Shown here: positions 3,362 to 54,412 of the stretch, piece after piece
Layout: each line of letters opens with the position of its first letter
Numbering within the stretch: position 1 is the stretch's first letter
IMG/VR virus record: IMGVR_UViG_3300017971_007904
Origin: a virus
Lineage: Duplodnaviria; Heunggongvirae; Uroviricota; Caudoviricetes
DNA: 64,000 nt
Strand: one strand, 5' to 3'
Made by a program: the position numbers and the translations under genes
Notes under the pieces: generated by a model
Seen by the model: the letters and a program-made list of their open reading frames with translations, nothing else
What the model was told of the DNA's origin: nothing
Database searches by the model: none

Positions 3362-3762
3362 TACTCAAAAAGAGATGCGTCATAGATGGGGAGGTCTGAA
3401 ACATCAGTAGACTCCTCTGGGGAGTCCTCTGGAGACTTCTCTGGCGGCTCCGGTCGCTTTGTATTAACGGTTTTGAGTTCCGAGAGGGCTTCCTTGTAGA
3501 TTCTGGCGATCTCTTGGTTCATCATTTCCACAGGAGACTCGTAACCGGCGATAAAAGCGTCTTCGAGCATCTTCTTCAATTTCTTCGGGGAGAGGATGTA
3601 CTGATCCATGGGTTGCTCCTTTTTAACCGGCAAGGTTTCTCTGGTGGTATCAGAGCTATAACAGCTAGAAGAAGTCGCAGAATAGTTGGAATAAGTTCCG
3701 TAATTGGAGTAAGGCGAGCCCAATGCAGAAGAAGTTGTGCTTATTGGAATATACTTAGGCAT
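3349..3762 (-). CDS. hypothetical protein (Ser/Tyr-rich N-terminus)
   Basis: 137-aa ORF overlapping its neighbours by a few nt in an operon-like arrangement. Confidence 0.45.
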   Translation of the reverse strand: MPKYIPISTTSSALGSPYSNYGTYSNYSATSSSCYSSDTTRETLPVKKEQPMDQYILSPKKLKKMLEDAFIAGYESPVEMMNQEIARIYKEALSELKTVNTKRPEPPEKSPEDSPEESTDVSDLPIYDASLFEYWSP

Positions 3763-5322: not shown

Positions 5323-5563
5323 TGTTTTCCTCGTTGTCTGTAAAGATGTTACATATCTCCTGCTTCCAGGCGGTGTCGACGGTGCCTAGGAACTCGCATA
5401 GGACGACGGAGGTACCGGACCACCAGAAAGCGATAGCTTCAGGCGCAGCCCAAGCAAGATTTTGCTTACTTTCTTCAAGTGCGGCTGCCAAGTCTTCTTG
5501 ATACTCGAAGTCGTCAGGGATGAGGGGAATGATTCGGTCGATCACGTTTTGTAGGTTTCGCAT
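5315..5563 (-). CDS. hypothetical small protein
   Basis: 82-aa ORF overlapping the hldE 3' end by 50 nt. Confidence 0.35.
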   Translation of the reverse strand: MRNLQNVIDRIIPLIPDDFEYQEDLAAALEESKQNLAWAAPEAIAFWWSGTSVVLCEFLGTVDTAWKQEICNIFTDNEENNE

Positions 5564-10994: not shown

Positions 10995-11027
10995 GTCAAC
11001 CATTCCGAATAAGTAAGGAGAAATATC

Positions 11028-12620
11028 GTGAATATGCAAAAGCTTAAGCTGATTGCAATAAGCATCGGCGTTGTGTTGTTTGTTGCGTTCTTTTTCGTCT
11101 GGACCGTCAACAGGGTCTACGTCCCCGAGGGCAAGAGTCTCTTGCTTCGATACAAGGGCCCACTGGTCTTCGGTAAGCGAGATATGGCCCCGAAGGGCCA
11201 CTTCGCCGCAGAGGGCCAAATCGGTGTTCGAGCAAAGCTGCGAGGTCCTGGTCGCCACTTCTACTGTCCCGTTTGGTGGGAGAGGACGATTGTGGATGAT
11301 CAAGTTGTCAAGCCGGGACAAGTGGCCATTGTTCGTTCCATGCTTGGTGACAATTTACCCTCTGGCCAATATCTCGTCGACGGCGAGCTTGGACAAACAA
11401 AGCACAAGGGTATTCTCCGCAAGGCGTATGCGCCAGGACGATACAGGGTTAACCCTTATGCCTACGAGTTTCAGATCGTAGAAGTCGTGAAGCAGAATGT
11501 CGGTAAACAGGTGAAGCATTCGGGGTGGGTAAGTATCCCCACCGGCTATGTCGGTGTTTGTACGAACCTTACGGATATCCCCCAACGCAAGCAAGTGACC
11601 GGTATCCAATCGAAAGTTCTGCCGCCCGGCATCTATCCTGTTAATAGTAAGGAACAACAGATCGACATCGTCGAGATCGGTTTCAGAGAAACCAGTGTTC
11701 ATGCCGAGCTACAACGGGATAGTGACGGTCAAGTGATACTGGACGATACTGGTGAACCGCAAATTGCGGATCAATCAACCGGCATCAACTACCCGAGTAA
11801 CGACGGGTTCCCCATCGTGATGGATTGGACCGCCATCTGGGGTATCATGCCCGATCAGGCACCGGAGGCCATCCGTACTTTCGGAGACGTTGATGCGGTC
11901 GAACAGAAGGTTGTCCTTCCTCAGACCGAGTCCATATGTAGGAATAAGGGCTCTCAGCACTCCGCTGTTGAACTCCTGGTTGGCGAACAACGCCAACAGT
12001 TCCAACTGGACGCCTCCGATGCCTTCCGTAATGTGCTGAAAGAGAAGAACCTCACTCTTCTCTACGGTTTGGTAAGCCACATCTACATTCCCCAAAGTGT
12101 GCGCAAGCCAATCCAGACAAAGTACATCGCCGACGAACTCAAGCTAACCAAAGACCAAGAGCAGAAAACTGCGAAGGTCGAAGCTGATCTGCGTGAGGCG
12201 GAAAGGCAGGTGGGCTTGGAAGGTGAACGAGTGAAATCTGACACGAGGAAGAAAGTTGCGGAAGCTATCGCCATGGGTCGTAAGACGGTTGGTGAAACGC
12301 ATGCCGAAACTACGAAGCTCGTGGCAGCCATCGATAAGGAGGTGGCCGAGTTAGAAGCCCAAGCAACCGTCGTGTTGGGTGAGGCGAGAGCCAACGCTGA
12401 GAAGATGCAAAAGGAGGCGAGATCGCAGAAGTTTGCGCTCGCCGTCGAAGCGTTTGGTTCCGGTTCCGCCTACAACGAGTGGGTGTTCGCTACTGGCCTG
12501 CCGGATGATGTAGACCTCAAGCTGCTATACGCAGGGGAGGGTACGTTCTGGACCGATGTCGACGGGTTCACGAACAAGCTCCTAGGCAAGCAGGAGAGGG
12601 AGCGTCAGAAGAGGAAATAA
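11028..12620 (+). CDS. SPFH/band-7 (flotillin/YqiK-like) membrane protein, paralog 2
   Basis: N-terminal TM helix; same domain order and similar C-terminal tail (…ANAEKMQKEARSQKFALAVEAFGSGSAY…) as the upstream paralog. Confidence 0.65.
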   Translation: MNMQKLKLIAISIGVVLFVAFFFVWTVNRVYVPEGKSLLLRYKGPLVFGKRDMAPKGHFAAEGQIGVRAKLRGPGRHFYCPVWWERTIVDDQVVKPGQVAIVRSMLGDNLPSGQYLVDGELGQTKHKGILRKAYAPGRYRVNPYAYEFQIVEVVKQNVGKQVKHSGWVSIPTGYVGVCTNLTDIPQRKQVTGIQSKVLPPGIYPVNSKEQQIDIVEIGFRETSVHAELQRDSDGQVILDDTGEPQIADQSTGINYPSNDGFPIVMDWTAIWGIMPDQAPEAIRTFGDVDAVEQKVVLPQTESICRNKGSQHSAVELLVGEQRQQFQLDASDAFRNVLKEKNLTLLYGLVSHIYIPQSVRKPIQTKYIADELKLTKDQEQKTAKVEADLREAERQVGLEGERVKSDTRKKVAEAIAMGRKTVGETHAETTKLVAAIDKEVAELEAQATVVLGEARANAEKMQKEARSQKFALAVEAFGSGSAYNEWVFATGLPDDVDLKLLYAGEGTFWTDVDGFTNKLLGKQERERQKRK

Positions 12621-15694: not shown

Positions 15695-15735
15695 TTGGAA
15701 ACCAGCAGGATTGACCCGCAATTTTGGAGGTAGCT

Positions 15736-17898
15736 ATGTCCACCGAGAATCCGGCCCCAGCCAGTGCCGTCGACAATGGTCAATCGACCTTTGATAAACT
15801 GGCCAAATCTTTCGACTGTGAAGAGTTCCGCAAGCTCACAACTGAGATGACCTTCTCCGAGTATCTCGAAGAGGCCGAGCGGAACCCCCTGGTGTGCCTC
15901 AGCGCCTACCAGAGAATCTACGACATGGTTCTTTCCGCTGGTGTCGAGCGCATCAAGCGGTTCAACAGAACCTTCACCCGCTACAAGTTCTTCGCCGAAC
16001 ATCCGGAGTTTCCGATCTACGGCCTGGAACAGGCCATCGACGGCTTCGTTGGCAACCTGAAAGGTGCCGCTGGGTACTATGGTACCGAAAAGCGAATCCT
16101 CCTGTTGCACGGCCCGGTCGGCTCGTCGAAGTCCACCGCTGTCCGAGCGCTCAAGCGGGGCTTGGAAGAGTACACCATGACGGATCGGGGTGCCCTCTAT
16201 ACCTTCGATTGGATTGACCTACCCGTCGAAGACGACGACGACGGCCCCGGCCTGGAGCTTCGCAAAATTGCGCCGTGCCCCATGCAGGACGACCCCGTCA
16301 AACTCATCCCGCCCGGCCCGATGCGAAAAGAGATGGAGAAGAAGCTCAACGTCGCATTGGAGAACATGAAACTCAGCGATGACGAAGCCGTCGACGCCGA
16401 GCTTCACCGCATCTTCAAGATTCGCCTGGATGGTGAACTCAACCCGCACGACAAGTTCTTCTACCGTGAGTTGCTTCGTCGCTACAAGGGCGACTGGCGG
16501 AGGGTCATGGAGAAGCACATTCGTGTGCGGCGTGTCGTCCTCTCCGAGTCCGACCGTGTCGGCATCGGTACGTTCAGCCCCAAGGACGAGAAGAACCAGG
16601 ATTCGACGGAGTTGAGTGGCGATGTCAACTATATGAAGTTGGGCCAGTACGGTGTCGACTCCGACCCCCGTGCCTTCAACTTTGATGGTGAGTTCGAGGT
16701 GAGCAACCGAGGGCTCTTGGAGATGATCGAAATGCTCAAACTCAACCAGGAGTTCTTGTACGACCTCCTGGGGGCAGCACAAGAGCGACAGATCAAACCC
16801 AAGAAGTTCCCGCAGGTTGGCATCGACGTGTGCATCCTCGGCCACACCAACGATCCGGAATACCAGAAGCTCCTCAAAAACGAGTGCATGGAGGCGCTGA
16901 AGGATAGGACGATTCGGGTCGACTGGCCCTACGTCCTTCGTTGGGAAGACGAGATCAATGTCCTTCGTCACGACTACAACCAGGAAAGGGTTCGACAGCA
17001 CATCGCTCCCCACACCATCGAGATCGCAGCGCTGTTCGCAATTCTCACCCGGTTGAAGACCGACAAGAACATCAAGCTCGATCCGGTCAAGAAGGCCAAG
17101 CTCTACAACGGCCAGACCGTCCCCGGCTATACGGAAGAAGCCGTCAAGGAGTTGATGGACGCCGAACCGTCCGAGGGTATGGACCAGGGCATCAGCGCCC
17201 GTTACGTCCAGAACAAGCTGTCGAACTCCCTCGTGTCCCACCACGACTACGTCAACCCGTTCATGGTTCTCCACGAACTGAAAGAGGGTCTGAAGACCTA
17301 CTCCCTCGTCGGTGACAACGAAAACCGTCGTGCGTTCTACGAGACGTGCGTCGACCTCGCCAAGAAGGAGTTGGACGAGATTCTCAAGAACGAGGTTCGT
17401 CGGGCTCTCGTTATGGACGATGAAGCCATCAGTCGGATGTTCACCTCGTACTTGGACAACGTCTTCGCCTATATCAACAACGAGAAGGTGAAGAACGAGT
17501 ACACCGGTGAGTTCGAGGAACCGAATGAGCGGTTGATGCGGTCCATCGAAGAGAAGATCGACGTTCCCGATCAGGGTGTCGACGACTTCCGCCGCAGCAT
17601 CGCCGCTTACGTCGGCCACATCACCCGCAACGAGGGCGAGAAGGCCCTCAAGTGGGACAGCAACCCCGATCTTGCAAGGGCACTGGAATTGAAGCTGTTC
17701 GAGGAAACGAAGGACAGCATCAAGCTCAGCAGCCTTACCAAGGTCACCGGCGTCATCGACCCGGATATGCAAGAGAAGATCAACCAGATCAAAACCCGGT
17801 TGGTCAAAAACTACGGTTACGACGAGCGCAGTGCGACCGACGTGTTGAACTACGTCGGCTCCATCTTCGCCCGTGGTGACATGGTCGAACAGCAGTAA
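15736..17898 (+). CDS. prkA: PrkA/YeaG-family serine protein kinase (AAA+ N-terminal domain)
   Basis: Walker A LLLHGPVGSSKST in a PrkA-type AAA domain; 721 aa from the ATG at 15736 (GGAGG SD); the C-terminal half matches the PrkA kinase region. Confidence 0.85.
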   Translation: MSTENPAPASAVDNGQSTFDKLAKSFDCEEFRKLTTEMTFSEYLEEAERNPLVCLSAYQRIYDMVLSAGVERIKRFNRTFTRYKFFAEHPEFPIYGLEQAIDGFVGNLKGAAGYYGTEKRILLLHGPVGSSKSTAVRALKRGLEEYTMTDRGALYTFDWIDLPVEDDDDGPGLELRKIAPCPMQDDPVKLIPPGPMRKEMEKKLNVALENMKLSDDEAVDAELHRIFKIRLDGELNPHDKFFYRELLRRYKGDWRRVMEKHIRVRRVVLSESDRVGIGTFSPKDEKNQDSTELSGDVNYMKLGQYGVDSDPRAFNFDGEFEVSNRGLLEMIEMLKLNQEFLYDLLGAAQERQIKPKKFPQVGIDVCILGHTNDPEYQKLLKNECMEALKDRTIRVDWPYVLRWEDEINVLRHDYNQERVRQHIAPHTIEIAALFAILTRLKTDKNIKLDPVKKAKLYNGQTVPGYTEEAVKELMDAEPSEGMDQGISARYVQNKLSNSLVSHHDYVNPFMVLHELKEGLKTYSLVGDNENRRAFYETCVDLAKKELDEILKNEVRRALVMDDEAISRMFTSYLDNVFAYINNEKVKNEYTGEFEEPNERLMRSIEEKIDVPDQGVDDFRRSIAAYVGHITRNEGEKALKWDSNPDLARALELKLFEETKDSIKLSSLTKVTGVIDPDMQEKINQIKTRLVKNYGYDERSATDVLNYVGSIFARGDMVEQQ

Positions 17899-17923
17899 CG
17901 CTCGCTGGGTTAGGGACGACCAG

Positions 17924-17966
17924 CCCCCACCTGTCGCTGCACGCTGCGACAGGTGGGGGCATTTTA
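17924..17966 (+). terminator. Rho-independent terminator after prkA
   Basis: CCCCCACCTGTCGC / GCGACAGGTGGGGG 14-bp stem followed by ATTTT. Confidence 0.7.
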
Positions 17967-17979
17967 CCCGAGGTTTGTC

Positions 17980-18258
17980 ATGGTCAAGTACGTTAACTTT
18001 CAGGTTCCCGGTTTTGGTTCGGTTGTGTCGGTCGAGTCGGGGCATTCGCTCGTCCGGTTGGCCCAGTTGCCGTTAGAAGATGCTATCGTTGCCCTGAAGG
18101 ATTGGGGTAAGAAGTTTCGCAAAAGGTTGATACAGCAATCAGCAACCCCACGAGACCGTTATACCGAATTGGCCCCTTATAACAACCCTCAAGGTTACAC
18201 GGAGCAATCTGCCCAGGATGTTTTCAATCACGTAGGTCAACTACTGGCCACTTCGTAG
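17980..18258 (+). CDS. small protein resembling the PrkA C-terminal tail
   Basis: ATG with GAGG SD; C-terminus GYTEQSAQDVFNHVGQLLA parallels the PrkA C-terminus GYDERSATDVLNYVGSIFA. Confidence 0.4.
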   Translation: MVKYVNFQVPGFGSVVSVESGHSLVRLAQLPLEDAIVALKDWGKKFRKRLIQQSATPRDRYTELAPYNNPQGYTEQSAQDVFNHVGQLLATS

Positions 18259-18268
18259 GAGGTGCAAC

Positions 18269-19501
18269 ATGCCACGGCGCATACAAGAAGATCATAAGAT
18301 GTTCCGAGACGTAGTGTCCGGAACCACAAGACGGGAGTTGAAGAAGTGGATTAAGAGTGGTCGTATCGTCCGCCGTCGAGGTAAGGACAAGCTTGCCATT
18401 CCGATCCCCCGAATCGACCTCCCGCATTTCATATTCGGTAGGCCGACCGAAGGCATCGGTCGGGGGCCCGGCAAGGATGGTGACAAGGTCGGTGAAGAAC
18501 CTGCCCCAAATCAAGGCGACGGGGCCAGCACCGATCCAGGTGATGCCATCCTGGTCGATGTCGACATGGAACGAATCCTCAAGGAAATGGGCGAGGATTG
18601 GGGCTTGCCGAACATGCTCCCGAAAGAGAACGCCACTTTCGAGGAAGTGAAGATTCGGTACAACAGCTTGTCGAAGATCGGCCCGCCGAGTTTGCTTCAC
18701 AAGCGGAAGACCATTCTTCAAACCCTCAAACGTATGTCGGCCATGGGCCAGTTGGGTCCGGAGAACGCACGGATACTCCCCGGTTACAACGTGCCCGTCA
18801 CGCCGCTGATTCCAATCAAGGATGATATGCGGTTTCGCAAGTGGACGGAGCAGCGCATCCCGTCCAGCAACGCCGTCATCTTCTTCGCCCGTGATATCTC
18901 GGGTTCGATGACGACATACAAGTGCGAGATCGTTTCGGACATGGCGTGGTGGATCGATATGTGGATTCGCCAGTTCTATGAAAAAACTGAGCGGGTCTAC
19001 GTTGTTCACGACACCCGTGCCAAAGAAGTCGACGAAGAACGGTTCTACAAGCTCAGGATGGGTGGTGGAACCATTTGCAGTAGCGCACTGAGGTACATCG
19101 CCAAACAGTTGAAGCATCGCTATCCCCCGGAGAAATGGAACGTGTACGTGTTCTATTTTTCGGACGGCGACAACTGGATGGACGACAACGACAAGTTCGT
19201 CAAGGTTCTCCGTGATGACCTTCCGCCCGACAAGGTCAACTTGTTTGGCATGACGCTGATTCTTCCCTGGTGCCAGGAGGGGCTCAAGGAACACCTGGAT
19301 GCTTTGATCAAGAATGGCAAGCTTGACAACAAGTTCATCCGTACCACCGGCATTGATCGTCCGGACAAGGATAAGAACGACCGGTGGGGTTGGTGGTGGT
19401 GGGACGAAACCATGGATGAAGATGCCCGTAACGATGCCATCCGCAACGCTATCCGAGAGTTGCTGGGGGCTCACGATCAGGCTTCCGAAAAAGCCGCATA
19501 A
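18269..19501 (+). CDS. yeaH: YeaH/YhbH-family DUF444 (vWA-like) protein
   Basis: vWA-like core FFARDISGSM...YVFYFSDGDNW; size and position between prkA and spoVR as in bacterial yeaG-yeaH-ycgB loci. Confidence 0.85.
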   Translation: MPRRIQEDHKMFRDVVSGTTRRELKKWIKSGRIVRRRGKDKLAIPIPRIDLPHFIFGRPTEGIGRGPGKDGDKVGEEPAPNQGDGASTDPGDAILVDVDMERILKEMGEDWGLPNMLPKENATFEEVKIRYNSLSKIGPPSLLHKRKTILQTLKRMSAMGQLGPENARILPGYNVPVTPLIPIKDDMRFRKWTEQRIPSSNAVIFFARDISGSMTTYKCEIVSDMAWWIDMWIRQFYEKTERVYVVHDTRAKEVDEERFYKLRMGGGTICSSALRYIAKQLKHRYPPEKWNVYVFYFSDGDNWMDDNDKFVKVLRDDLPPDKVNLFGMTLILPWCQEGLKEHLDALIKNGKLDNKFIRTTGIDRPDKDKNDRWGWWWWDETMDEDARNDAIRNAIRELLGAHDQASEKAA

Positions 19502-19515
19502 TTGGAGGTGCAACC

Positions 19516-21144
19516 ATGCCCAGTACGATGTTGCACGGGTCGCCGATTTTACTCGACGACAATACCGTGCCCGGCGTGAAGTACACGCCAGAACTTGAGG
19601 AGGTTATTCCAAAGGTCATCCAAGCGTGCTTGGACTTCGGGCTCAAGCCCTACAAGCCTGTTGTCGAGGTCCTCACATACGATGACATTTCGGAGGTGGC
19701 TGCCTACGGGGGCTTCCCCGTGAGGTTCCCCCACTGGTCCTTTGGGATGGAGTATGAAGAACTCAGCAAAGGCTATGAGTTCGGCATGCACAAGATTTAC
19801 GAGATGGTAATCAATACCAATCCGGCATACATCTACTGTCTCGATTCCAACCCCCTGCTCGACCACGTTACGGTCATCGCTCACGCCACAGGCCACAGCG
19901 ATTTCTTCCGCCAGAACGTCTGGTTCGAGCCGACTACCGAGAACGCTCTGAACGAATTGGCCAACCACGGCAGCCGGATTCGGCGGTACATGGACCGCTG
20001 GGGCCGGGAGAAGGTCGGCCAGTTCATCGATTGGGTCCTTTGCGTCGACGATCTGATCGACCTATCCGCATCGTGGCGGTCGAGGCAGGTCAAAGAGCTA
20101 CGAGTCAAGGATAGGCGGGAATACCACTACCCCCGTCGACTCAAGCTGCCGTCGACCGAGGACGAAGAGCACGATTACATGGAACCCTGGATCAACGACG
20201 ATCAGTGGAAGAAGTTCGAGAAGGAACGTCTGGCTCGCCTGGAAGCGGCGCAGACCTTGAACATCTTCAAAGGTAACGACAAGGATGTCCTGGGTTACCT
20301 CGTCAAGAACGCTCCGTTGGTCCCCTGGCAACAGGACATCATCAGTATGCTCTACCGGGAGGCGCAATACTTTGCCCCCCAAGCCTTGACCAAGATGATG
20401 AACGAGGGCTGGGCGTCCTACGTCGATTACAACATCATGGCCCGAAAGCATTGGGCTGGTGGTGGTGGAATCTACGACTACTCCAAGCACAAGATGGGTG
20501 TGCTGGGTGGTAAGTACTCGACCAACCCGTATGCCGTTGGGTTTAAGCTCTTCCTTTACATTGAAGAGCGATGGAACAAGGGCCGCTTCGGAAGGGAATA
20601 CGAGCAGTGCGAAGACATGACCAAGAGGAAGAATTGGGACACGAAGGCCGGTAAGGGCCACGAGAAGGTGTTCGAGGTTCGGGAAATCCACAACGACCTG
20701 ACGGCGATCCAGCAGTTCGTCGACCAGGAGTTCGTGGACCAGTACGAACTCTACGTCTGGGAGAAGTTCCCACGACCGGACGGCGGGTTCGACTACCGGA
20801 TCAAGACACGGGATGCCAAGGAGATCAAGAAAATCCTCATGCAGAGGTACTCCAACGGTGGTCGTCCCGACATCCGCCTTACCGACCCGAACTACGCCAA
20901 CAAGGACATCCTCTTATTGCAACACTTTTGGGAGGGACGAATCCTCGCCCGGCGCTACGCCCAGGCCACCCTCGTCTGCCTCTGGAACCTCTGGAACCAG
21001 GGTGGCGTGGCCGGAAAGCGGCCTGTCGCCGTTGCGACGAAGGACAAGGACGGCGAAGAATTTGTCTACGTCTGCACCGGTACCAAACCGGAGCAGAACC
21101 AGATTCTCCGTCGCAAGAAGTTCGAGGAAGAGTTCGGCTCCTAA
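19516..21144 (+). CDS. spoVR: SpoVR/YcgB-family protein
   Basis: Conserved FPHWSFGMEYEEL, IYEMVINTNPAYIY, HATGHSDFF motifs; 542 aa. Confidence 0.88.
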   Translation: MPSTMLHGSPILLDDNTVPGVKYTPELEEVIPKVIQACLDFGLKPYKPVVEVLTYDDISEVAAYGGFPVRFPHWSFGMEYEELSKGYEFGMHKIYEMVINTNPAYIYCLDSNPLLDHVTVIAHATGHSDFFRQNVWFEPTTENALNELANHGSRIRRYMDRWGREKVGQFIDWVLCVDDLIDLSASWRSRQVKELRVKDRREYHYPRRLKLPSTEDEEHDYMEPWINDDQWKKFEKERLARLEAAQTLNIFKGNDKDVLGYLVKNAPLVPWQQDIISMLYREAQYFAPQALTKMMNEGWASYVDYNIMARKHWAGGGGIYDYSKHKMGVLGGKYSTNPYAVGFKLFLYIEERWNKGRFGREYEQCEDMTKRKNWDTKAGKGHEKVFEVREIHNDLTAIQQFVDQEFVDQYELYVWEKFPRPDGGFDYRIKTRDAKEIKKILMQRYSNGGRPDIRLTDPNYANKDILLLQHFWEGRILARRYAQATLVCLWNLWNQGGVAGKRPVAVATKDKDGEEFVYVCTGTKPEQNQILRRKKFEEEFGS

Positions 21145-21193
21145 GGGCACGAAGCACCTCCTTGGGTCAAGTTCGCTGAACAGGGCCCTGCAC

Positions 21194-21233
21194 AGCCAGC
21201 CACCAGACATTGTCTGGTGGCTGGCTTTTTTTC
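21194..21233 (+). terminator. Rho-independent terminator after spoVR
   Basis: AGCCAGCCACCAGACA / TGTCTGGTGGCTGGCT stem followed by TTTTTTT. Confidence 0.8.
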
Positions 21234-21320
21234 TCATCTTTCTTGTCTCTCCTGCCGATACCTAGAATAGGAAGCATATTGCTACCTTAAGGATGAGGGT
21301 AACGTGTCCTTGGAGAAACC

Positions 21321-21989
21321 ATGCCTAGAGGTCCTAAGAAGCAAATCCCGCAATCAGAGGTGTCACAACTAATCAATGACGTGCATGGTTTGAATATCAA
21401 TGCACGAACCAGAGAACTCTTCTTAATGGGATATGCGGGAGATTCGCAGGAAGAAGACCCTGGAGTTGATTACCGTTCAGCCGGTACCTTTTTGAAGAAC
21501 TTGCACATCTTAGAGACCCTTGGCCGCTCCAAAATCATCGTCCACATGCAAATCACGGGCGGTGAGTGGAGTTATGGTATGGGCATTTACAATGCCATCC
21601 AGGCGGCAAAATCTTCTGTTACGATAGTCGCCTATGCTCACGCCACTTCGATGAGTGGTGTGATCCTTCAGGCGGCTGATAACCGCATCCTGATGCCGGA
21701 TACGCACTTCATGTTGCACTACGGTTCTCTGGGGATCGAATCGACCTCACAGGCCGTTTTAGCGTGTGTGGAGCAGAATGAGCGGGATAACAAGCGGATG
21801 CTTGAAATCTTCGCTGAGCGGGCCGTAGAGGGCCCACATTTCCGTGCCAAGCGGTGGGGCGTGAAACGAGTGTCCGATTACATCGACCACGAGATGCGGC
21901 AGAAAGGTGATTGGTACCTGAGCGCCACGGAGGCTGTGGAGTATGGCTTTGCGGATGGTGTCTTAGGACGAGACATTACGAAAGTATGA
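21321..21989 (+). CDS. ClpP-family (S14) serine peptidase
   Basis: ClpP-like core with catalytic Ser in ATSMSG and His in MPDTHFMLHYG; 222 aa. Confidence 0.75.
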   Translation: MPRGPKKQIPQSEVSQLINDVHGLNINARTRELFLMGYAGDSQEEDPGVDYRSAGTFLKNLHILETLGRSKIIVHMQITGGEWSYGMGIYNAIQAAKSSVTIVAYAHATSMSGVILQAADNRILMPDTHFMLHYGSLGIESTSQAVLACVEQNERDNKRMLEIFAERAVEGPHFRAKRWGVKRVSDYIDHEMRQKGDWYLSATEAVEYGFADGVLGRDITKV

Positions 21990-22391: not shown

Positions 22392-22625
22392 ATGCCAAGA
22401 AAGAAAGAGGAACCTATGGATATCATGAACATTGACATCTTGAATCCAGAGTTTATAGCCTTAGCTACGGAAGCCAAGGAGCTTCACGACAAAAAAGAGG
22501 CTACCACCGCTGAGTTCAAGAAGCTTTATGTGAAGCACAAGGCCGACATGGCTGAACTCGAACACGAGGCCGAGGAACTCAAGAAGAAGATGGCTGCGCT
22601 AACCACAGAAAAAGCTTCAGAATGA
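22392..22625 (+). CDS. hypothetical coiled-coil protein
   Basis: ATG at 22392 with GGAGAA SD; charged helical sequence. Confidence 0.45.
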   Translation: MPRKKEEPMDIMNIDILNPEFIALATEAKELHDKKEATTAEFKKLYVKHKADMAELEHEAEELKKKMAALTTEKASE

Positions 22626-22664
22626 CCCCCGTATTCTCCGATACTTAAGAAGACGGAGGATGAC

Positions 22665-25193
22665 ATGAAGAAGTGTGAAACGTGTGGCCTAGAGCATTTG
22701 CATCGACACTCAGATTTCTCTCTCCTAGACGGGTTTGCTACCGTCGAGGAGTATGCGGCTTACTCCGAGGCCGCTAATCAGAAGTATCTGTGTATCAGCG
22801 ACCACGGTATGCTTGGTTGCATCCCCCGCCAGATTCGGGCTTGTGACGAGTACAATCTTCAGCCGGTATTTGCCTGTCTTACCGCTGGCCAGCCGATATA
22901 TCTAAAGGATGGAATCAAGCCAATCGAAGAGGTATTGGTTGGTGATCAGGTGTTGACCGATAAGGGTCGTTATCGCAAAGTACTACGAGTGATGAGTCGG
23001 CGGTATCAGGGAAGTCTTTATAAAGTCAAGTTGGCGAACCAAACTGGTAGAGCCTTGATGCAAACGCTAACAGGGGAGCATCCGATTCTCATAAGGAGCT
23101 ATAATGGTCAATATAGCTGGATACCAGTATCGCAAATATTGACAGGCCGTCCCACTACGAAGCGTGGACTTAAAAACCACAATTCGTATGTCTGTTATCC
23201 GCAGAGCAGATCGTCACGTTCTGTAACTTTGAAGATTAGTGACTATCTTCCTGATATTTTTGAATGCGGTGATACCATTGTTCGTACTGGTTGGAAAGGG
23301 GTAGCTGCTTATGAGTGGGAAATTCCACCTGAGTTTGAATTAGATGAGAATTTTGCATATTTCTTGGGCTTATATGTGGCGGAAGGCTCATCGACCACCA
23401 ATAAAAAAGGTTTGCCAAATGGAGCTATGAGGTTGTCATTACATGCCAAAGAGTCTCCTTTGGTGGAAAGGTGCCAACCTGCTGTTGAAGCATTTGGTAT
23501 CAAATTTCATTTGTATCCACGACCTGAGATCAATCGTTTAGATGTTCATTTTGGTTGTCTACCCTTATCTTACATCATTAGGCAACTGTGCGGTATTGGA
23601 TCGCATTGCAAAAAAGTACCCTCCCCAATCTTTCAAAGCTCACTTTCGGTGAAAAAGGCTTTTATGGAAGGTTTGATGGATGGCGATGGCAAAATTAGTG
23701 GTGTGCAAGATGTGTTGAGGGTAGCGTCAAAAGAGTTGGCGTGGGGTGTCAAGAGATTGTTATCCGATTTAGGGTATTGGTCTAATGTTGGGCTTTCTAA
23801 GGATGGTGACAAGGAGTGCTACCATCTCAGTTATTGTCCGGAACGAACATATGCTAGAAGTTTTGTCGAAGATGGCTCTGTAATGTCACCGGTTCAAGAC
23901 ATTGTTGAATTACGTGATCAAGATGTCATGGTATACAATTTAGAGGTAGAAGAGGACAACAGCTATGTCAGTTATTTCGCTGTACATAACTGTGAGTTGT
24001 ACGTCAACAACGCACAACCCATTTGCCGAGACCCAGAAGACTACGTCAAATACGTCGAAGAGAACTCTCCCGAGACGAAGGAGACCCTTCGTAAGTCCTA
24101 TCATCTACTGGCGATAGCTTACACGAATCAAGGTTACAGCAACCTCGTACAGCTTGCGTCGTGGGGCCACATTTATGGTTGGGGTGGCGTACCACGTCGA
24201 CCACGGATCACGCACGAGCAGTTGATGAAGCACAAAGAGGGCTTGATCTTTTCATCGTGTTGCTATCTCTCGGAGATTGGTCAAACCTTTGATCGGTACG
24301 GTCGAGATGCCGCTTTTGCCATGATCGAGAAGTACATGGCCATGTTTGGCGATAACTTCTATCTGGAGTTGATGCTCTTGGACTTCAAGAAGCAAAAGCC
24401 ATACGACCAGTTTCTTATTGAGGCTCATGACCGGTATCACATCCCTCTGAACATCACGCAGGATTGCCACTACTGCAAACAAGAGGATGCTAAGTACCAG
24501 CAGTATATGCTGATGATACGCACGAAGCACACGGTGGCTGACATTGAGGCGGCTATCGAACAGGGTGAGGCAAGGGAAGGTTTCTTTGAGTTACAGGATC
24601 AGCAACTTTGGATGAAAACTGAAGAGGAGTTGAACGAAAAGTGGAACGAAGATTACACCGACGCAATCCCGTATGAACTCTTTTGTCAGGCTAAGCATAA
24701 CACGGTCGAGATATGTCGGAAAGCCGAAGGAGTTGAGATCGACCGTACCATCAAGTTGCCCGAAATCGACGAGGCTGACGAGAAGCTCTGGGAGGGGCTT
24801 TGTAAAGGTTTCAAATGGCGAGGTTTGGAGGGTAAGGCTGACTATATGCAACGCTTGAGAGAGGAGTATGAGCTTATCTGCCGCAAAGACTTCTCCAGTT
24901 ACTTTCTCTTGACAAAGATGTTTACGGATGAGGGTCGTCGAGCGTGCCCCAAACTGATTGGTTGGGGAACTGGCGAAGAGGCAATTAGCCCTGGCCGAGG
25001 GTCGGGTGTGAGCTTCCTATCCAATTACGTCTTGGGTATTACGGATGTTGATCCAATCCGCCACGACTTAGTCCCAGAAAGGTTCCTCAGTGATGCACGG
25101 GGTGGTCGTCAACTGAAGCTACAGTTTGATAGTGAGCCGATTAGTACGGCTCATAGTCATCCGGAATCTCCCAATCATCCGGAATCGGAATGA
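22665..25193 (+). CDS. dnaE: DNA polymerase III alpha subunit (DnaE), N-terminal fragment (PHP domain through the GPGRGSG region), interrupted by an intein
   Basis: PHP motif LHRHSDFSLLDG; after the intein, SYFLLTKMF...SPGRGSGVSFLSNYVLGITDVDPIRHDLVPERFLSDAR aligns with E. coli DnaE ~residues 300-400; the last ~30 aa are non-homologous. Confidence 0.85.
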   Translation: MKKCETCGLEHLHRHSDFSLLDGFATVEEYAAYSEAANQKYLCISDHGMLGCIPRQIRACDEYNLQPVFACLTAGQPIYLKDGIKPIEEVLVGDQVLTDKGRYRKVLRVMSRRYQGSLYKVKLANQTGRALMQTLTGEHPILIRSYNGQYSWIPVSQILTGRPTTKRGLKNHNSYVCYPQSRSSRSVTLKISDYLPDIFECGDTIVRTGWKGVAAYEWEIPPEFELDENFAYFLGLYVAEGSSTTNKKGLPNGAMRLSLHAKESPLVERCQPAVEAFGIKFHLYPRPEINRLDVHFGCLPLSYIIRQLCGIGSHCKKVPSPIFQSSLSVKKAFMEGLMDGDGKISGVQDVLRVASKELAWGVKRLLSDLGYWSNVGLSKDGDKECYHLSYCPERTYARSFVEDGSVMSPVQDIVELRDQDVMVYNLEVEEDNSYVSYFAVHNCELYVNNAQPICRDPEDYVKYVEENSPETKETLRKSYHLLAIAYTNQGYSNLVQLASWGHIYGWGGVPRRPRITHEQLMKHKEGLIFSSCCYLSEIGQTFDRYGRDAAFAMIEKYMAMFGDNFYLELMLLDFKKQKPYDQFLIEAHDRYHIPLNITQDCHYCKQEDAKYQQYMLMIRTKHTVADIEAAIEQGEAREGFFELQDQQLWMKTEEELNEKWNEDYTDAIPYELFCQAKHNTVEICRKAEGVEIDRTIKLPEIDEADEKLWEGLCKGFKWRGLEGKADYMQRLREEYELICRKDFSSYFLLTKMFTDEGRRACPKLIGWGTGEEAISPGRGSGVSFLSNYVLGITDVDPIRHDLVPERFLSDARGGRQLKLQFDSEPISTAHSHPESPNHPESE
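22875..23990 (+). mobile_element. intein (372 aa) with LAGLIDADG homing-endonuclease domain inserted in the DnaE PHP domain
   Basis: N-splice block CLTAGQPIYL, block B TLTGEHPIL, LAGLIDADG-like FAYFLGLYVAEGS and FMEGLMDGDGKIS, C-terminal VYNLEVEE...FAVHN followed by extein Cys (CELYV). Confidence 0.8.
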
Positions 25194-27635: not shown

Positions 27636-27985
27636 GGGGGCGACAGGTATCGATTGGCTATGTCGATAACGGGTTGCCTGCCGTGGTTGGTCAGCAGGCC
27701 ACGTAAAAAGCCGACCACTAAACTTTAAGTGCCGAACCGGTACGAATGGCTGCTTAAGAGTAGCCCAGGCCAAGGAAGCCCGCCAGCGGCGTCCGGAAGC
27801 CTGCCGAAAATGTTGGCTGGATTCAGGTCATTGTCGACTACGCCTGGGTTGAGATCAGTTGTCATGACTAGCCGTTAGAACTTTGTTCGCCGAGGTCGAA
27901 TCGGTAAAACCAAAAGACGAACTATTGCAGGTAGACGCCTTTTTGAGACTAGTGCAACACAGCGGTTCGAGTCCGCTCGCCTCCA
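27636..27985 (+). ncRNA. ssrA: tmRNA (ssrA)
   Basis: 5' GGGGGCG pairs with 3' CGCCUCC as a 7-bp acceptor stem carrying the G3:U70 alanine identity pair; T-arm AGCGG-UUCGAGU-CCGCU; internal GGUUGG...CGUAAAAAGCCG closely matches E. coli tmRNA upstream of the tag ORF; candidate tag reading frame GCC GAA CCG GUA CGA AUG GCU GCU UAA (AEPVRMAA) at 27730-27756; discriminator A; CCA not fully encoded. Confidence 0.8.
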
Positions 27986-27994
27986 CTTTCTACA

Positions 27995-28283: not shown

Positions 28284-28418
28284 ATGAAACGGCTTTCAAT
28301 GTTAATCTATGATGTTTATCCGTGTGAAGGTTATCTTGCCGCCGACCCTCCTGACAACCCAGAGATTTCGGCACCGGACTCCATCGACTTATCAGAAGTT
28401 GGAACGGAACGAGAATGA
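28284..28418 (+). CDS. 44-aa upstream ORF translationally coupled to the GluRS-like gene (possible leader peptide)
   Basis: Strong SD AGGAGGT 6 nt upstream; its stop TGA overlaps the ATG of the next gene (gaATGa); its first 15 nt ATGAAACGGCTTTCA nearly duplicate the start of the next gene (ATGAAAACGGCTTTCA). Confidence 0.4.
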   Translation: MKRLSMLIYDVYPCEGYLAADPPDNPEISAPDSIDLSEVGTERE

Positions 28419-29743
28419 AAACGGCTTTCATTTACCACGCCTCCTGGGTGCCCGGATTGCATCTTGGAGCAGCCCGACTTGCGCTGTTGAACTACCTTTA
28501 TGCCAAAAAGCATGGTGGTTCGTGTGTTCTTATCTGTAATGATATCGCATCGCCGCCCAAGCCGTTCCACGACAGCCTCCCAATGTTGTTGGAGTGGCTG
28601 AACATCCGCTGGGGGGAAGGCCCATACCACAACGTCCACTTCAGGGGGAAGTATCGTGAGGTGGTAGAGCGTCTGCTCAGTTGCAACTTGGCCTATTACG
28701 ATTACGCCACACCGGAGGAGATTCACAGCGAGCAGCAAGCTGCTCGTAAGTCGAAGGAGCCATTCCTTTACAGTCGCTTGTATGAAGGTCACACGCCCAC
28801 TGACTGCCGGAACTGGGAGGCAGAAGGCCGGAAAGCTGTTATTAGGCTTCGGATGCCTCGGACGGATGATGAGACCTACCGTTACGAAGAGGCGATTATG
28901 GATGATATGATCTACGACCGCAAGATTACCGATCTGGCGACGGAAAATGACTACGTCATTCAGCGAACTGACGGCAGTTACACAACATATCTCACGCAAG
29001 CGGTTGATTACGATCTCCACAACATCGATGTTGTGTTCAGGGACATCAATGATCGGGCTTCGTTAGCCGCCGAAACCTTCATTGCCAGATGGGCGGGCTT
29101 GAAGCAGCCTAAGTTTGGCCATATTCCTTACTTTGCTGGGCCTGTTGGCTCTCATCGGTTCTCACCCAAGCACGATAAGGATTATGCCCGCCACGTCGAG
29201 TTTTGCGAGATGCTCGATCTGGTCATGGAGATTGACGCCAAGATTCCAACTTACTCACAATGGGGCGTTTTTCATCCGTGTTATGTGCGATTTTACGAGA
29301 AGGTTGGATTCCTCCCAGAGGCGGTTTCTCACTACCTGTATCAGTCGCTCCTGAAAACGTCTGTAGAATGCGATTCTAGGCCCCTCACAGCCTCTCAGAT
29401 GGCCTCTAAGCTCGAATTGGACTCAGTAGACCCTGGTATAAAACAATTCGATACAGAGGCTCTGGAAGCCTGCCAGAGGGAGGCTATGAAAGGCTGCGGA
29501 TTAGGGCGTAAAGCTAAGCTCATTCACTCATTGGCTCGCTCGATCCGCCCCTTCGATTACAAGCGTGATTTTGGAGGCGTGCAATCAGAAGCGGTTCAAG
29601 CCTTTAAGGATTTTGCTGAAAGCCAGGACCTCTTCTTGATAGGAGAGGCGGCTCTTCGCCCAAATGATCTTCCATGCGGCTTTGCACCTGAGCCTACGCT
29701 TGAAGAGGACGCTTTTACCAACGAAGGCTGTCCACACAGTTGA
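28415..29743 (+). CDS. class-I aminoacyl-tRNA synthetase catalytic-domain protein, glutamyl-tRNA synthetase / GluQ-RS-like
   Basis: N-terminal WVPGLHLGAARLALLNYLYAKKHGGSCVLICNDI resembles the GluRS HIGH region (PSPTGxLHxGxARTALxNWLxAR..GGxFxLRIEDTD); 442 aa, no recognisable anticodon-binding domain. Confidence 0.65.
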   Translation: MKTAFIYHASWVPGLHLGAARLALLNYLYAKKHGGSCVLICNDIASPPKPFHDSLPMLLEWLNIRWGEGPYHNVHFRGKYREVVERLLSCNLAYYDYATPEEIHSEQQAARKSKEPFLYSRLYEGHTPTDCRNWEAEGRKAVIRLRMPRTDDETYRYEEAIMDDMIYDRKITDLATENDYVIQRTDGSYTTYLTQAVDYDLHNIDVVFRDINDRASLAAETFIARWAGLKQPKFGHIPYFAGPVGSHRFSPKHDKDYARHVEFCEMLDLVMEIDAKIPTYSQWGVFHPCYVRFYEKVGFLPEAVSHYLYQSLLKTSVECDSRPLTASQMASKLELDSVDPGIKQFDTEALEACQREAMKGCGLGRKAKLIHSLARSIRPFDYKRDFGGVQSEAVQAFKDFAESQDLFLIGEAALRPNDLPCGFAPEPTLEEDAFTNEGCPHS

Positions 29744-29780: not shown

Positions 29781-30482
29781 ATGTCTGATAACATCCACAG
29801 ACCGAAAGATGTGAGAGCAGCCATCTTCGATTTGGATGGTGTGATCATTTCGTCGAAAGTGGCCGAGTACGAATCGTGGCGTAGGGTCTTCCGAGTCTTC
29901 AACTCTAACTTGACACTCCAACAGTGGGTCAAGATCATCGACAGTCCAGACGGTGTATTCGATCCCGCAACCGTCTTGAGGCAAAAATGCAAGATAGAGT
30001 TGCTTGCCAACGGCCAAATCGAGACCATGAGGACGAACCTGTATGAGTCGCTGCGCCGGGAGCTAGTAGCATTGCCGGGGATCGTGGGGCTCATCAAAGA
30101 ATGCACATCAATGGATTTGATGCTTGGTGTGGCCTCCAACGGAGACCACACCAAGGTAATGTACCACTTAGGTCGACTCAAGTTGCTTCGTTACTTCCAT
30201 GTGATCAAGTGTCGGGACGATGTTCGGAACAAGAAGCCCGCCCCGGATATCTATATGGCCACCGTGCGGGACTTGGGCGTGAATCCTGGGACCGTAGTTG
30301 TCTTTGAGGATTCCCCACCAGGGATCACTGCCGCCAAAGCGGCTGGCCTGTATTGCATTGGGTGCCCGAACAAGATCACGAAGTATCTCGACCTTTCTGA
30401 AGCGGACGAGATATGCAAGTCCTTCAAACGTTTCTCTATGCAAGAGTTCATTAACCCTGCCAACAAACTGACGAGGTTGTAG
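29781..30482 (+). CDS. HAD-superfamily hydrolase, beta-phosphoglucomutase/phosphatase-like
   Basis: Motif I AAIFDLDGVII; motif II GVASNG; motif III/IV KKPAPDIY...FEDSPPGITAAKAAG. Confidence 0.8.
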   Translation: MSDNIHRPKDVRAAIFDLDGVIISSKVAEYESWRRVFRVFNSNLTLQQWVKIIDSPDGVFDPATVLRQKCKIELLANGQIETMRTNLYESLRRELVALPGIVGLIKECTSMDLMLGVASNGDHTKVMYHLGRLKLLRYFHVIKCRDDVRNKKPAPDIYMATVRDLGVNPGTVVVFEDSPPGITAAKAAGLYCIGCPNKITKYLDLSEADEICKSFKRFSMQEFINPANKLTRL

Positions 30483-30507: not shown

Positions 30508-31440
30508 TCATGGGGTGAGTAGACATCGGCGAATAGCTTCTTTTACCTTGACGGTAGGTTGAAAGCCCAGGTCTCTTTCGGCTTTTGATATGTCTGGAAC
30601 CCTAACCAACACATCGTCTTTGTATTCCTTCATCGTTTCAAACTTGAGTTCCTCTTTGCCTTGGTAGATCAACCTCGCTAGGTCTTTCATTGTGATGGGT
30701 TCTGGATTCCCGATGTTGTAGGTTTCATTGTTGGTTTTGTCTTCAAATGACCACTCACCAATGATGTTAGCAACATCCTCGATCCAGGTGAAACACCTTA
30801 TCTGGTTACCGTCACCAATGATGGGCAATGGGTTTCTACTTTCATTCGCTATCTTCTGAATGAAGTCGGCGAACACATGACTTAAACCCTGTTCTTTCCC
30901 GGCAATTTCATGTGGGCTTATTATGTTGAAAGGTCTCCAGATGACGTACCGGATGTCATATTGTTGAGCGAAAGCCCTACACATTCTTTCGCCGACCACT
31001 TTGGACAAGCCGTAGTCTGTGGAGGGTGTCGGTGACTCAAATGCATCTTCTTCTTTACTTGGCTGGTTATGGCACCTTTCGTAGACCATGGAAGAACTGA
31101 TGTATGCTATCTTCTTGACATGATGCTTCACCATAGCCCACAGAATGTTTTGGTGTAGAGCGACATCTTTCGATAGAATATCTGCTGCGTGCTTGTGGAA
31201 TCCGCCCACACCGTAGCACAGCGCCGCTGCCTGTACTACGCCGTCGACTCCCGTCATCACCTCATCCACGAACTTGCTATCGGTAAGATCGCCTCGATGA
31301 AAGGTATAGGTTCTAGTTCTATTGATTTCACCGTATCGAACAAAGTTATCCACCCCTAGAACTTCATGGCCGTTCTTCATCAAGACTGGGATCACGAATT
31401 GCATCAATGACCCTTCTGATCCCGTAACAAGTATCTTCAC
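30508..31440 (-). CDS. NAD-dependent epimerase/dehydratase (extended SDR) family protein
   Basis: N-terminal Rossmann VTGSEGSLMQFV; catalytic YGLSK (YxxxK); 310 aa. Confidence 0.75.
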   Translation of the reverse strand: MKILVTGSEGSLMQFVIPVLMKNGHEVLGVDNFVRYGEINRTRTYTFHRGDLTDSKFVDEVMTGVDGVVQAAALCYGVGGFHKHAADILSKDVALHQNILWAMVKHHVKKIAYISSSMVYERCHNQPSKEEDAFESPTPSTDYGLSKVVGERMCRAFAQQYDIRYVIWRPFNIISPHEIAGKEQGLSHVFADFIQKIANESRNPLPIIGDGNQIRCFTWIEDVANIIGEWSFEDKTNNETYNIGNPEPITMKDLARLIYQGKEELKFETMKEYKDDVLVRVPDISKAERDLGFQPTVKVKEAIRRCLLTP

Positions 31441-32234
31441 ATCTCCCTCATTCCGTCAAAAACAGTTGTCTCGAACTGTTCGTTATCGCTCAAGACAGCT
31501 TGAAAGAGTCTTCCCTTTGTCTGTAGTTCGTTTGCCAGTTGACTGATGGTATGAGTATCTTTCGGTAGACACACGCCGCCGAAACCCTTGAAGTTATCGT
31601 TGCAGTCTAAGTAACTATCTGTAATATGGCTTCTATTCACAGCGGCGTTTTTAACCGTAGTGTAATCAACATTCATCTTCTCGCATATTTCGTAGAAGTT
31701 GTTTGCGAATGTCACTAGGGTGGCGTTGTAGACATTGATGAAGTATTTCACCAATTCGGCCTCTGTGGGAAGAAGTCGGACTGTTTTCTTCGGATACTTC
31801 CCATGAGCGGATTTAATGATCTCAAAGACACAGGAAGTCTTTGTTCCGATTACGCATAGGTCATGATTCTCCATAAAGTCAGATATAGCACATCGCTCTC
31901 TTAGGAACTCGGGAACATAGCATAGAATCCTACTTGGGTATTCGTGCTGTAGCCTTTCAGTAAAGCCCGGTTCTACAGTTGATTTGATTGCTATTATCCC
32001 AGCGTAGTCGATTGCGTCTAATTCGTTTATTACACTTTCGACAATGCTAACATCGCACTTGCCAGTGCCCAGTGAGGGTGTGGGTACGCAAATGAATGCG
32101 ATTTCCGTATTTTCCAGGTCTCGAATTGAGGTCTCGCATTTCGTATCGTGAACGAAGACTCTGTGCCCTATCTTCTCAAAGCCTTCCTTTATGGCTGAGC
32201 CTACAACACCTAAACCGATTATTCCTATCTTCAT
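31437..32234 (-). CDS. UDP-glucose/GDP-mannose dehydrogenase-family protein, short form
   Basis: Start taken at MKIGIIGLGVVGSA (GxGxxG); IKSTVEPGFTERL and YVPEFLRERCAISDF...DLCVIG match the UDPGDH N-terminal and central domains; no C-terminal UDP-binding domain (265 aa). Confidence 0.65.
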   Translation of the reverse strand: MKIGIIGLGVVGSAIKEGFEKIGHRVFVHDTKCETSIRDLENTEIAFICVPTPSLGTGKCDVSIVESVINELDAIDYAGIIAIKSTVEPGFTERLQHEYPSRILCYVPEFLRERCAISDFMENHDLCVIGTKTSCVFEIIKSAHGKYPKKTVRLLPTEAELVKYFINVYNATLVTFANNFYEICEKMNVDYTTVKNAAVNRSHITDSYLDCNDNFKGFGGVCLPKDTHTISQLANELQTKGRLFQAVLSDNEQFETTVFDGMREM

Positions 32235-32299
32235 GCCATAAGAGAGGGTTTGTTGAGAAAATGCTAAGGTTTTTGGCCCGATAAGCCGATACATGAAGT

Positions 32300-54410: not shown

Positions 54411-54412
54411 AC

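Follow-up and report, generated by a model that had tools for sequence, protein, structure and literature searches.

A putative class 1 intein with a LAGLIDADG endonuclease domain in the PHP domain of a two-gene phage DnaE

We analysed 64,000 nucleotides (nt) of the virus record IMGVR_UViG_3300017971_007904 (Caudoviricetes) from IMG/VR; this whole stretch is called the window below. Our analysis showed that the segment at 22875..23990, on the plus strand, is very likely a bona fide intein with a LAGLIDADG domain, lying in frame in the PHP domain of the polymerase DnaE. The case rests on three independent lines, namely homologs with an empty site, homologs with an occupied site, and the predicted fold, since profile scores alone are not decisive. 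An earlier annotation made from the letters alone (the first-pass annotation) had proposed a LAGLIDADG intein in the DnaE PHP domain, and the empty-site homologs, the same-site alleles, the conservation of the splicing blocks and the fold all support it. Its naming of the host held only in part. The intein does lie in a PHP domain, but the host gene supplies only the N-terminal part of a DnaE that is encoded by two genes.

Boundaries and motifs of the insert

The features of the host gene and of the insert are given below. Invariance refers to an alignment of seven inteins, whose hosts are ribonucleotide reductase, UDP-glucose dehydrogenase, two methyltransferases and DnaE; the inteins of primase P0010 and of phage P1 Dmt are outside it. 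Model confidence is given as the predicted local distance difference test (pLDDT).

22665..25193, plus strand: host open reading frame (ORF), the N-terminal part of DnaE (N-part) with the insert; 842 amino acids (aa), uninterrupted frame
22665..22874, plus strand: N-extein, the first 70 residues of the N-part (PHP motifs HLHRHS..LLDG and SDHG), ending in QPVFA; Pfam PHP 88 bits
22875..23990, plus strand: putative intein, 372 aa, class 1 (Cys1 to His371-Asn372) with LAGLIDADG endonuclease domain; in frame
22875..22913, plus strand: splicing block A, CLTAGQPIYLKDG, intein residues 1-13, Cys1 being the first nucleophile; C1 and G13 (and K15 and I17 beyond the block) invariant; pLDDT >90
23067..23090, plus strand: splicing block B, LTGEHPIL, with T66-x-x-H69; T66 and H69 invariant
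23352..23393, plus strand: LAGLIDADG motif 1, FAYFLGLYVAEGSS, with putative catalytic Glu170 (VAE170-G); Pfam LAGLIDADG_3; G165 and G171 invariant, position 170 being E or D in all seven
23655..23696, plus strand: LAGLIDADG motif 2, KAFMEGLMDGDGKI, with putative catalytic Asp271 (DGD271-G); G266, D271 and G272 invariant; aligned to motif 2 of PI-PkoII and TliVMA
23925..23969, plus strand: splicing block F, VMVYNLEVEEDNSYV; core invariant
23973..23990, plus strand: splicing block G, YFAVHN, with penultimate His371 and terminal Asn372; both invariant, the +1 Cys coming next
23991..23996, plus strand: +1 Cys (second nucleophile) and the conserved PHP-domain Glu (CE of CELYVN); Cys-Glu kept in 10/10 empty sites

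Read from the DNA, the insert measures 1116 nt, or 372 codons, and is in frame. At the 5′ boundary, GCC (Ala70) is followed by TGT at 22875-22877, which opens TGT CTT ACC GCT GGC (CLTAG). At the 3′ boundary (23985-23996), CAT AAC is followed by TGT GAG, that is His-Asn and then Cys-Glu, with AAC at 23988-23990. The first-pass annotation had placed an intein with canonical boundaries here, directly after the QPVFA stretch; its coordinates proved exact, every motif that it named was located, and the Ala70 codon abuts the Cys1 codon. It had also named the points that might speak against an intein. At these points, blocks A, B, F and G were found to be conserved in the seven-intein alignment, and the C-terminal Asn372 and the +1 Cys of the extein were both found on re-inspection.

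Class 2 inteins have no N-terminal nucleophile, and class 3 inteins have a WCT motif and a block F Cys. The position that is Cys in class 3 is Asn355 here. Since Cys1 is present and the class 3 block F Cys is absent, the element is assigned to class 1.

Position in the PHP domain

In phmmer alignments, QPVFA-CELYV (the hyphen marks the insertion point here and below) faces KPIIG-YEAYV of Thermus aquaticus and KPIIG-VEAYI of M. tuberculosis DnaE1. The insertion falls between Ala70 and Cys71 of the N-part, one residue ahead of the conserved PHP Glu (the Glu of GYEAY in T. aquaticus and of GVEAY in M. tuberculosis). Inteins typically interrupt conserved active-site motifs, and the Glu after the +1 Cys is presumably among the nine metal ligands of PHP. 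PMC3919608 covers these nine positions and how well they are conserved. As the intein splits a conserved PHP motif, the unspliced precursor should be without an intact PHP site, and splicing would be needed to rebuild it. More speculatively, the location of the intein between two cysteines and against the PHP metal site might make maturation of the N-subunit dependent on redox state or zinc.

Empty and occupied sites in relatives

Ten homologous loci of huge phages (including L001, L002, L004-L007, L009 and L010) read P(V/I/L)(F/Y)(G/A)-CELY(V/L)N with no insert, and removal of the insert from the window protein restores this motif. One of them, L001 (LR756511.1), is a 595-kb uncultured phage and the closest relative from the annotated collection. 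It has a single contiguous DnaE of 1179 aa, which reads LTPVFG-CELYVNP at this place. In a BLASTP comparison with this protein, window residues 5-70 and 440-842 were aligned and the insert (precursor residues 71-442) was skipped. The N-extein aligns to L001 DnaE residues 4-66, and the C-extein is 51% identical to residues 67 to about 430. The nine other empty-site loci were drawn from IMG/VR and ENA. The closest relative, P0014 of L009, is likewise intein-less, and its N-part is 77% identical to the spliced window protein. The target codons are conserved at the DNA level, chiefly in the 3′ half, TGY GAR YTN TAY GTN AAY.

Two other inteins were found at the same codon. P0001 of L008, a 97-kb ENA contig which shares the PrkA/DUF444/SpoVR/ClpP synteny described below, reads SPIFA-CLPAGHP at the upstream junction and EFAVHN-CELYVN at the downstream one, with 44% identity across 366 residues of the intein. 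In the fragment P0134 the junction is KPIFA-CLTAGNF and identity is 56% across 123 residues; this fragment was the one new same-site allele among the 10 candidates found with a query that spans the junction, made of the N-extein and intein residues 1-73. The identical 842-aa product of the window was found on three contigs of three sources, with lengths up to 340 kb. At 90% identity, the window protein and its intein are singletons in a collection of 15 billion proteins.

Predicted fold

Pfam LAGLIDADG_3 matched the insert at E 1.4e-11 and 45 bits, the cut-off being 22.5. An AlphaFold2 model of the intein was built from the seven-sequence alignment and had a mean pLDDT of 75, most of the splicing domain exceeding 90. 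In this model, residues 1-90 and 330-372 are beta-rich (pLDDT mostly 85-94) and make up a Hint splicing domain from both termini, while endonuclease residues 158-321 (pLDDT about 75-90) take an alpha-beta-beta-alpha-beta-beta-alpha double-domain fold. The best 15 Foldseek matches in the PDB were all LAGLIDADG inteins, with PI-SceI first (E 4e-17) and then TliVMA, PI-PkoII and PI-PfuI. After the inteins came the free-standing I-DmoI, which matches the endonuclease half (target-normalised template modelling score about 0.7, E 3e-6). When the PDB was searched by sequence with the intein, PI-PkoII was the best hit (E 9e-9).

Intein subfamily

Full-length homologs of the intein, with 24-44% identity, were found in ribonucleotide reductase, UDP-glucose dehydrogenase, and N6/N4 and C5 DNA methyltransferases. 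The same set takes in DnaG primase (P0010, partial), phage P1-type Dmt and a portal protein. The invariant residues of the seven-intein alignment are C1, G13, K15, I17, T66, H69, G165, G171, K246, G266, D271, G272, S285, H371 and N372. The block F core VYN(L/F)EVEEDN(S/T)Y is also invariant there, and the inteins come from at least six different host proteins. The +1 Cys is supplied by the host of every subfamily member. L001, whose DnaE is intein-less, has an intein homolog in another gene (about 444432..445514 in record coordinates), with 26% identity over 95% of the length.

Composition and distribution

At 42.9%, where the mean is 49.2 ± 2.9%, the intein has the lowest GC content of any 1.1-kb stretch in the window and ranks in the bottom 0.2% of sliding windows. 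GC at third codon positions (GC3) is 39% in the intein and 58% in both DnaE pieces, and the L008 allele deviates in the same direction (53% against 66%). This low GC and GC3 suggests a fairly recent acquisition. No insert is present in at least 118 of the 120 best homologs of the N-part, and such a patchy distribution is as expected of a mobile element. Neither a second copy of this intein nor any other intein was detected in the window by tblastn with the intein or by a block F motif scan.

Points against the assignment

Several results weigh against the intein, its activity or its recent movement. The profiles of the splicing domain scored below their curated cut-offs: Hint_2 (25.9, cut-off 28.4), Hom_end_hint (20.1, cut-off 32.1), Intein_splicing (13.5, cut-off 35.8) and TIGR01445 (19.8, cut-off 24.5); the C-terminal profile TIGR01443 (intein_Cterm) scored 15.6, which equals its cut-off. 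Singly at or below threshold, these profiles do point in the right direction. In block F, Asn355 and Asp361-Asn, which are invariant across the seven inteins, depart from the common class 1 consensus; most class 1 inteins have Asp at the Asn355 position, and many have His-Asn at the position of Asp361-Asn. Intein identity among the same-site alleles (44-56%) is not above extein identity (55-59%), so recent transfer between those three lineages is not demonstrated. Intein residues 93-153 (23151..23333) were modelled with pLDDT <50. Finally, that the element splices and cuts DNA is read from its conserved residues.

We read the block F variant as a subfamily signature that is probably under selection rather than as decay, because it is invariant in inteins within essential genes. 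The poorly modelled segment lies between the N-terminal splicing subdomain and the endonuclease and may be an insertion for DNA recognition; P0001 and P0134 both conserve the first part of it, TGRPTTKRGLKNHNSYVCYPQ.

Proposed splicing and homing

The following steps are inferred from the canonical class 1 pathway, and the residues named in them were observed in the sequence. The 842-aa precursor would be translated, and Cys1, aided by Thr66 and His69 of block B, would undergo an N-S shift which turns the Ala70-Cys1 bond into a thioester. The +1 Cys would attack this thioester to give a branched intermediate (trans-thioesterification). Asn372, aided by His371, would then cyclise and release the intein, and an S-N shift would form a normal Ala-Cys bond and restore PVFA-CELYVN in a mature N-subunit of 470 aa. 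This subunit would pair non-covalently with the 878-aa C-subunit (32300..34936) to give the polymerase. The freed 372-aa intein would be expected to work as a monomeric LAGLIDADG endonuclease with two motifs. In co-infected cells it would cut an intein-less allele around the point where CCGGTATTTGCC meets TGTGAGTTGTACGTC, and recombinational repair from the intein copy would complete homing.

Judging from the conserved residues, we consider it highly probable that the intein is competent for splicing. Present-day endonuclease activity is favoured with clearly less assurance; the patchy distribution, the occurrence of same-site alleles in divergent hosts and the foreign GC3 are indirect pointers to cleavage and homing. 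The first-pass annotation had called the element active, and it may well be so, given the intact catalytic positions and the foreign-looking composition.

Alternative explanations

It is possible, though less likely than continued activity, that the intein can splice while its endonuclease is dead or decaying, so that it no longer homes and is kept because its loss must be precise. This is the usual fate of fixed inteins in the homing cycle, the segment of residues 93-153 beside the endonuclease domain is poorly modelled, and the same-site alleles have had time to diverge down to 44% identity. However, both acidic residues and Lys246 have been preserved in this intein and in P0001, the family as a whole conserves them, and a full-length endonuclease domain has been kept, in contrast to the mini-intein of P0099 at another site. 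The strongly foreign GC3 also argues for a recent arrival, which would require an active nuclease.

Much less probable is that the insert is a permanent, non-splicing Hint/LAGLIDADG element or a disabling insertion, in which case the N-part gene would be a pseudogene or would encode a protein with an extra domain. The sub-threshold Hint scores and the departure of block F from the commonest class 1 consensus would fit such a reading. But C1, H69, H371-N372 and the +1 Cys are all present, and the 2.5-kb ORF is open throughout. In addition, the PHP motif is split beside its conserved Glu, so that the unspliced protein would lose an otherwise fully conserved site, and the block F variant is invariant in inteins of many essential host genes.

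LAGLIDADG genes are common in group I introns, those of phages included. Nevertheless, it is very improbable that the insert is a free-standing or intron-encoded gene which is in frame by chance and removed at the RNA level: Hint blocks A and B and blocks F and G flank the endonuclease, the model folds as one intein, and the boundaries fall exactly at Cys and at Asn-Cys. A group I intron or other RNA family was sought in 22600..24200 and none was found; the Rfam gathering scan of the whole window detected only a transfer-messenger RNA (tmRNA). The window does come from a metagenomic assembly, but a chimera in which the insert was misjoined to the DnaE gene can be dismissed as scarcely credible, as the exact 842-aa product recurs on three contigs of three sources, two other assemblies have homologous inteins at the same codon, and both junctions are in frame.

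The host DnaE is encoded by two genes

DnaE in the window is split into the N-part (22665..25193) and a C-terminal part (C-part, 32300..34936), with 7.1 kb between them and the break between ERFLS and PDIDVDY. The features that bear on the split are as follows.

23991..25193, plus strand: C-extein of the N-part, with the remainder of PHP, the beginning of the palm (GPGRGS..ERFLS) and a tail of 33 aa; Pfam PHP, and DNA_pol3_alpha positions 18-98 only
25095..25127, plus strand: N-part tail ARGGRQLKLQF, a putative degenerate copy of the catalytic PDIDIDF strand; phmmer alignment to M. tuberculosis DnaE1 PERTSMPDIDIDF
32300..34936, plus strand: DnaE C-part, 878 aa, with an 85-aa helical head, catalytic FPDIDVDY, palm, thumb, fingers, HhH and OB; Pfam DNA_pol3_alpha 100-259, finger and HHH_6
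32300..32557, plus strand: C-part head, a putative diverged duplicate of the N-part segment LWEGLCKGF..YFL..(GPGRGS)..LGIT; hhalign

The N-part ends with GPGRGS, ITDVDPIRHDLVPERFLS and then 33 more residues before the stop at 25193. Its tail aligns to PER..MPDIDIDF of M. tuberculosis DnaE1, with the catalytic Asps replaced, and the tail motif ARGG(R/K)..K..F recurs in L002, L007, P0014, P0015, P0032, P0116 and P0120; P0099 has SRGG. From residue 86 (EFPDIDVDY), the C-part aligns to L001 DnaE residues 435-1149 with 41% identity, and its AlphaFold2 model matches DNA polymerase III (Pol III) alpha of T. aquaticus, M. tuberculosis and E. coli. When a profile of the head was compared with one of the N-part segment (LWEGLCKGF to YELICRKDFSSYFL) by hhalign, the probability was 94.6% (E 6.5e-8, 45 columns). 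In tblastn, the C-part alignment runs via the head into the preceding DnaE segment of the contiguous relative L004. Since the tail corresponds to a degenerate catalytic strand and the head to a duplicate of an N-part segment, the two genes appear to overlap by a duplicated segment that has degenerated in a complementary manner. Within it, the N-part retains GPGRGS and has K/Q for the catalytic Asps, while the C-part retains PDIDVD and has lost GPGRGS.

The split was found at the same place in L002, L007 and L008, where 1.7 kb to about 8 kb lie between the two genes. No C-part was found within 10 kb in L009 or L010. The N-part was matched by 691 database proteins at E <1e-30, and lengths of about 450 aa were seen for at least 118 of its 120 best homologs (nearly all 426-483 aa), on contigs up to 634 kb. 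An exhaustive search with the C-part returned numerous representatives with lengths of about 820-890 aa, whose alignments begin at residue 1. Its recurrence in relatives indicates that the split is no peculiarity of this contig.

A split intein joining the two DnaE genes was considered and rejected. The 33-aa tail has no Cys or Ser start motif and aligns to the catalytic strand. The head has no Hint match, is helical and is homologous to a DnaE segment, and its HN dipeptides precede D or L, not a nucleophile.

At least three intein sites occur in the family, namely FG-CE (the window), GPGRG-S (P0099) and FNK-S (P0144 and P0150). P0099 has a mini-intein at GPGRG-S of the N-part. Inserts of about 420 aa, with recognisable F and G blocks and a low-complexity middle, follow GY(S/G)FN(K/A) in the C-parts P0144 and P0150 and end in TSN-SHS; four residues separate this site from that of the cyanobacterial split intein. 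In the window, the counterparts of the P0099 and P0144/P0150 sites are uninterrupted (GYGFNKAHS at 33638..33664). We would tentatively propose a clade of huge phages with a two-gene C-family polymerase, made of a PHP/early-palm protein of about 450 aa and a catalytic protein of about 850 aa, with a duplicated overlap of about 110 residues, no split intein, and an intein hot spot of at least three sites; our confidence in this picture as a whole is below even. The searchable literature gave no account of a non-intein split DnaE in huge phages, only papers on the cyanobacterial split intein, which is weak evidence of novelty.

Gene neighbourhood

The 7.1-kb gap between the DnaE genes is coded on both strands and contains a PspC-like ORF, a tmRNA, a glutamyl-tRNA synthetase-like ORF, an HAD hydrolase, an epimerase and a UDP-glucose dehydrogenase. 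These and other genes of the window are listed below; strands are given where assigned.

3035..3361, minus strand: HNH endonuclease ORF, 108 aa; Pfam HNH 24.1 bits, cut-off 21.4
5514..6989: bifunctional sugar kinase/cytidylyltransferase
9477..12620: two SPFH/Band-7 proteins
15724..21989, plus strand: PrkA kinase, DUF444 (YeaH-like) and SpoVR triad, then a ClpP-like protease; directly upstream of the polymerase gene
27636..27988, plus strand: tmRNA; Rfam RF00023 95.6 bits, ARAGORN tag peptide AEPVRMAA-stop
28415..29743, plus strand: ORF with class I Glu/Gln-tRNA synthetase catalytic domain, 442 aa; Pfam tRNA-synt_1c 2e-25
29781..30482: HAD hydrolase
30508..31440: NAD-dependent epimerase
31437..32294, minus strand: UDP-glucose/GDP-mannose dehydrogenase-like ORF
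48271..49893: thiamine pyrophosphate enzyme
52740..53633, plus strand: UDP-glucose/GDP-mannose dehydrogenase-like ORF
54368..55501: DnaJ

The window carries a sizeable load of auxiliary metabolism. The PrkA/DUF444/SpoVR/ClpP arrangement is syntenic in L001, L008 and L010 and is a conserved huge-phage module. A tRNA-synt_1c homolog follows the DnaE N-part in L009, and a different aminoacyl-tRNA synthetase is found there in L008.

The first-pass annotation had also reported a freestanding HNH endonuclease at 3035..3361. This ORF does exist, but on the minus strand rather than on the plus strand that was implied; its neighbours are a dCMP deaminase (3755..4345) and an HD-domain protein (4342..5322). 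It is 19.5 kb from the polymerase gene, on the opposite strand and outside the polymerase module. Pfam scans, which took in 40 of the roughly 79 ORFs of the window, found no HNH, GIY-YIG, LAGLIDADG, Hint or transposase domains other than those of the intein and this ORF. The description of a mobile-element-rich replication module was therefore overstated, as only these two elements, 19.5 kb apart on opposite strands, stand behind it. One intein and one HNH ORF per 64 kb is unremarkable for a huge phage.

Comparison with known systems

PI-SceI of yeast VMA1 and the archaeal PI-PkoII, PI-PfuI and TliVMA, all of solved structure, are like the window intein in that a monomeric LAGLIDADG endonuclease with two motifs interrupts their Hint splicing domain, and PI-SceI also shares Cys1, the C-terminal His-Asn and the +1 Cys. 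They are the best fold matches (E 4e-17 to 2e-12), yet identity is only 12-17%. Unlike PI-SceI and the archaeal inteins, the window intein lies in a phage DnaE, has VYNLEVEEDNSY in block F, and has the extra segment of about 60 residues at 93-153. Its direct homologs are the metagenomic and phage inteins with block F VYNLEVEEDNSYV (P0001-P0006 and the phage P1-like Dmt inteins), which have invariant residues in common with it and all have a +1 Cys. Most members of this subfamily are in other genes (ribonucleotide reductase, UDP-glucose dehydrogenase, DNA methyltransferases, primase and portal), whereas P0001 and P0134 are in DnaE. By these comparisons the element appears to be an ordinary further example of the known class 1 LAGLIDADG intein type.

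The cyanobacterial split DnaE inteins (Ssp and Npu) also have Pol III alpha as host and a gene in two pieces. However, those inteins are themselves split, have no endonuclease, and lie at EY-CFNKSH in the fingers, where trans-splicing joins the halves. The window intein is contiguous and lies in PHP, and the gene break is elsewhere, after ERFLS and before PDIDVDY, without intein halves. The cis-splicing inteins of bacterial DnaE include DnaE-1 and DnaE-2 of Thermus thermophilus and Ter DnaE-1 and DnaE-2 of Trichodesmium. Of these, DnaE-1 of T. thermophilus is mentioned in PMC3359363. The insertion site in the window differs from that of the cyanobacterial split inteins, whose counterpart in the C-part is intact, from GPGRG-S of P0099 and from FNK-S of P0144 and P0150.

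Polymerase and reductase genes in pieces are known from other phages: NrdA of Aeromonas phage Aeh1 is split by a homing-endonuclease gene, gp43 polymerases are split in some T4-like phages, and the pieces reassemble non-covalently. Those cases concern a ribonucleotide reductase or a family B polymerase with adjacent pieces. Here, in contrast, a C-family polymerase is in pieces that lie from 1.7 kb to more than 10 kb apart across relatives, with a duplicated overlap.

Significance

The value of the intein itself is modest. It adds a PHP-domain insertion site in a C-family polymerase, beside a conserved active-site Glu, and a further member of a compact all-Cys (Cys1 and +1 Cys) subfamily whose inteins move between DNA-metabolism genes of phages. 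Tools for protein engineering can be developed from inteins of this sort, which also mark gene flow among huge phages that are uncultured. The two-gene context, which was unexpected for the host polymerase, matters more than the intein. Automated annotation that expects a DnaE of 1,100-1,200 aa will mislabel the two pieces as truncated, and a DnaE that is split by nature and assembled non-covalently, as found across hundreds of metagenomic relatives, would be a natural experiment on the cut points that Pol III alpha tolerates.

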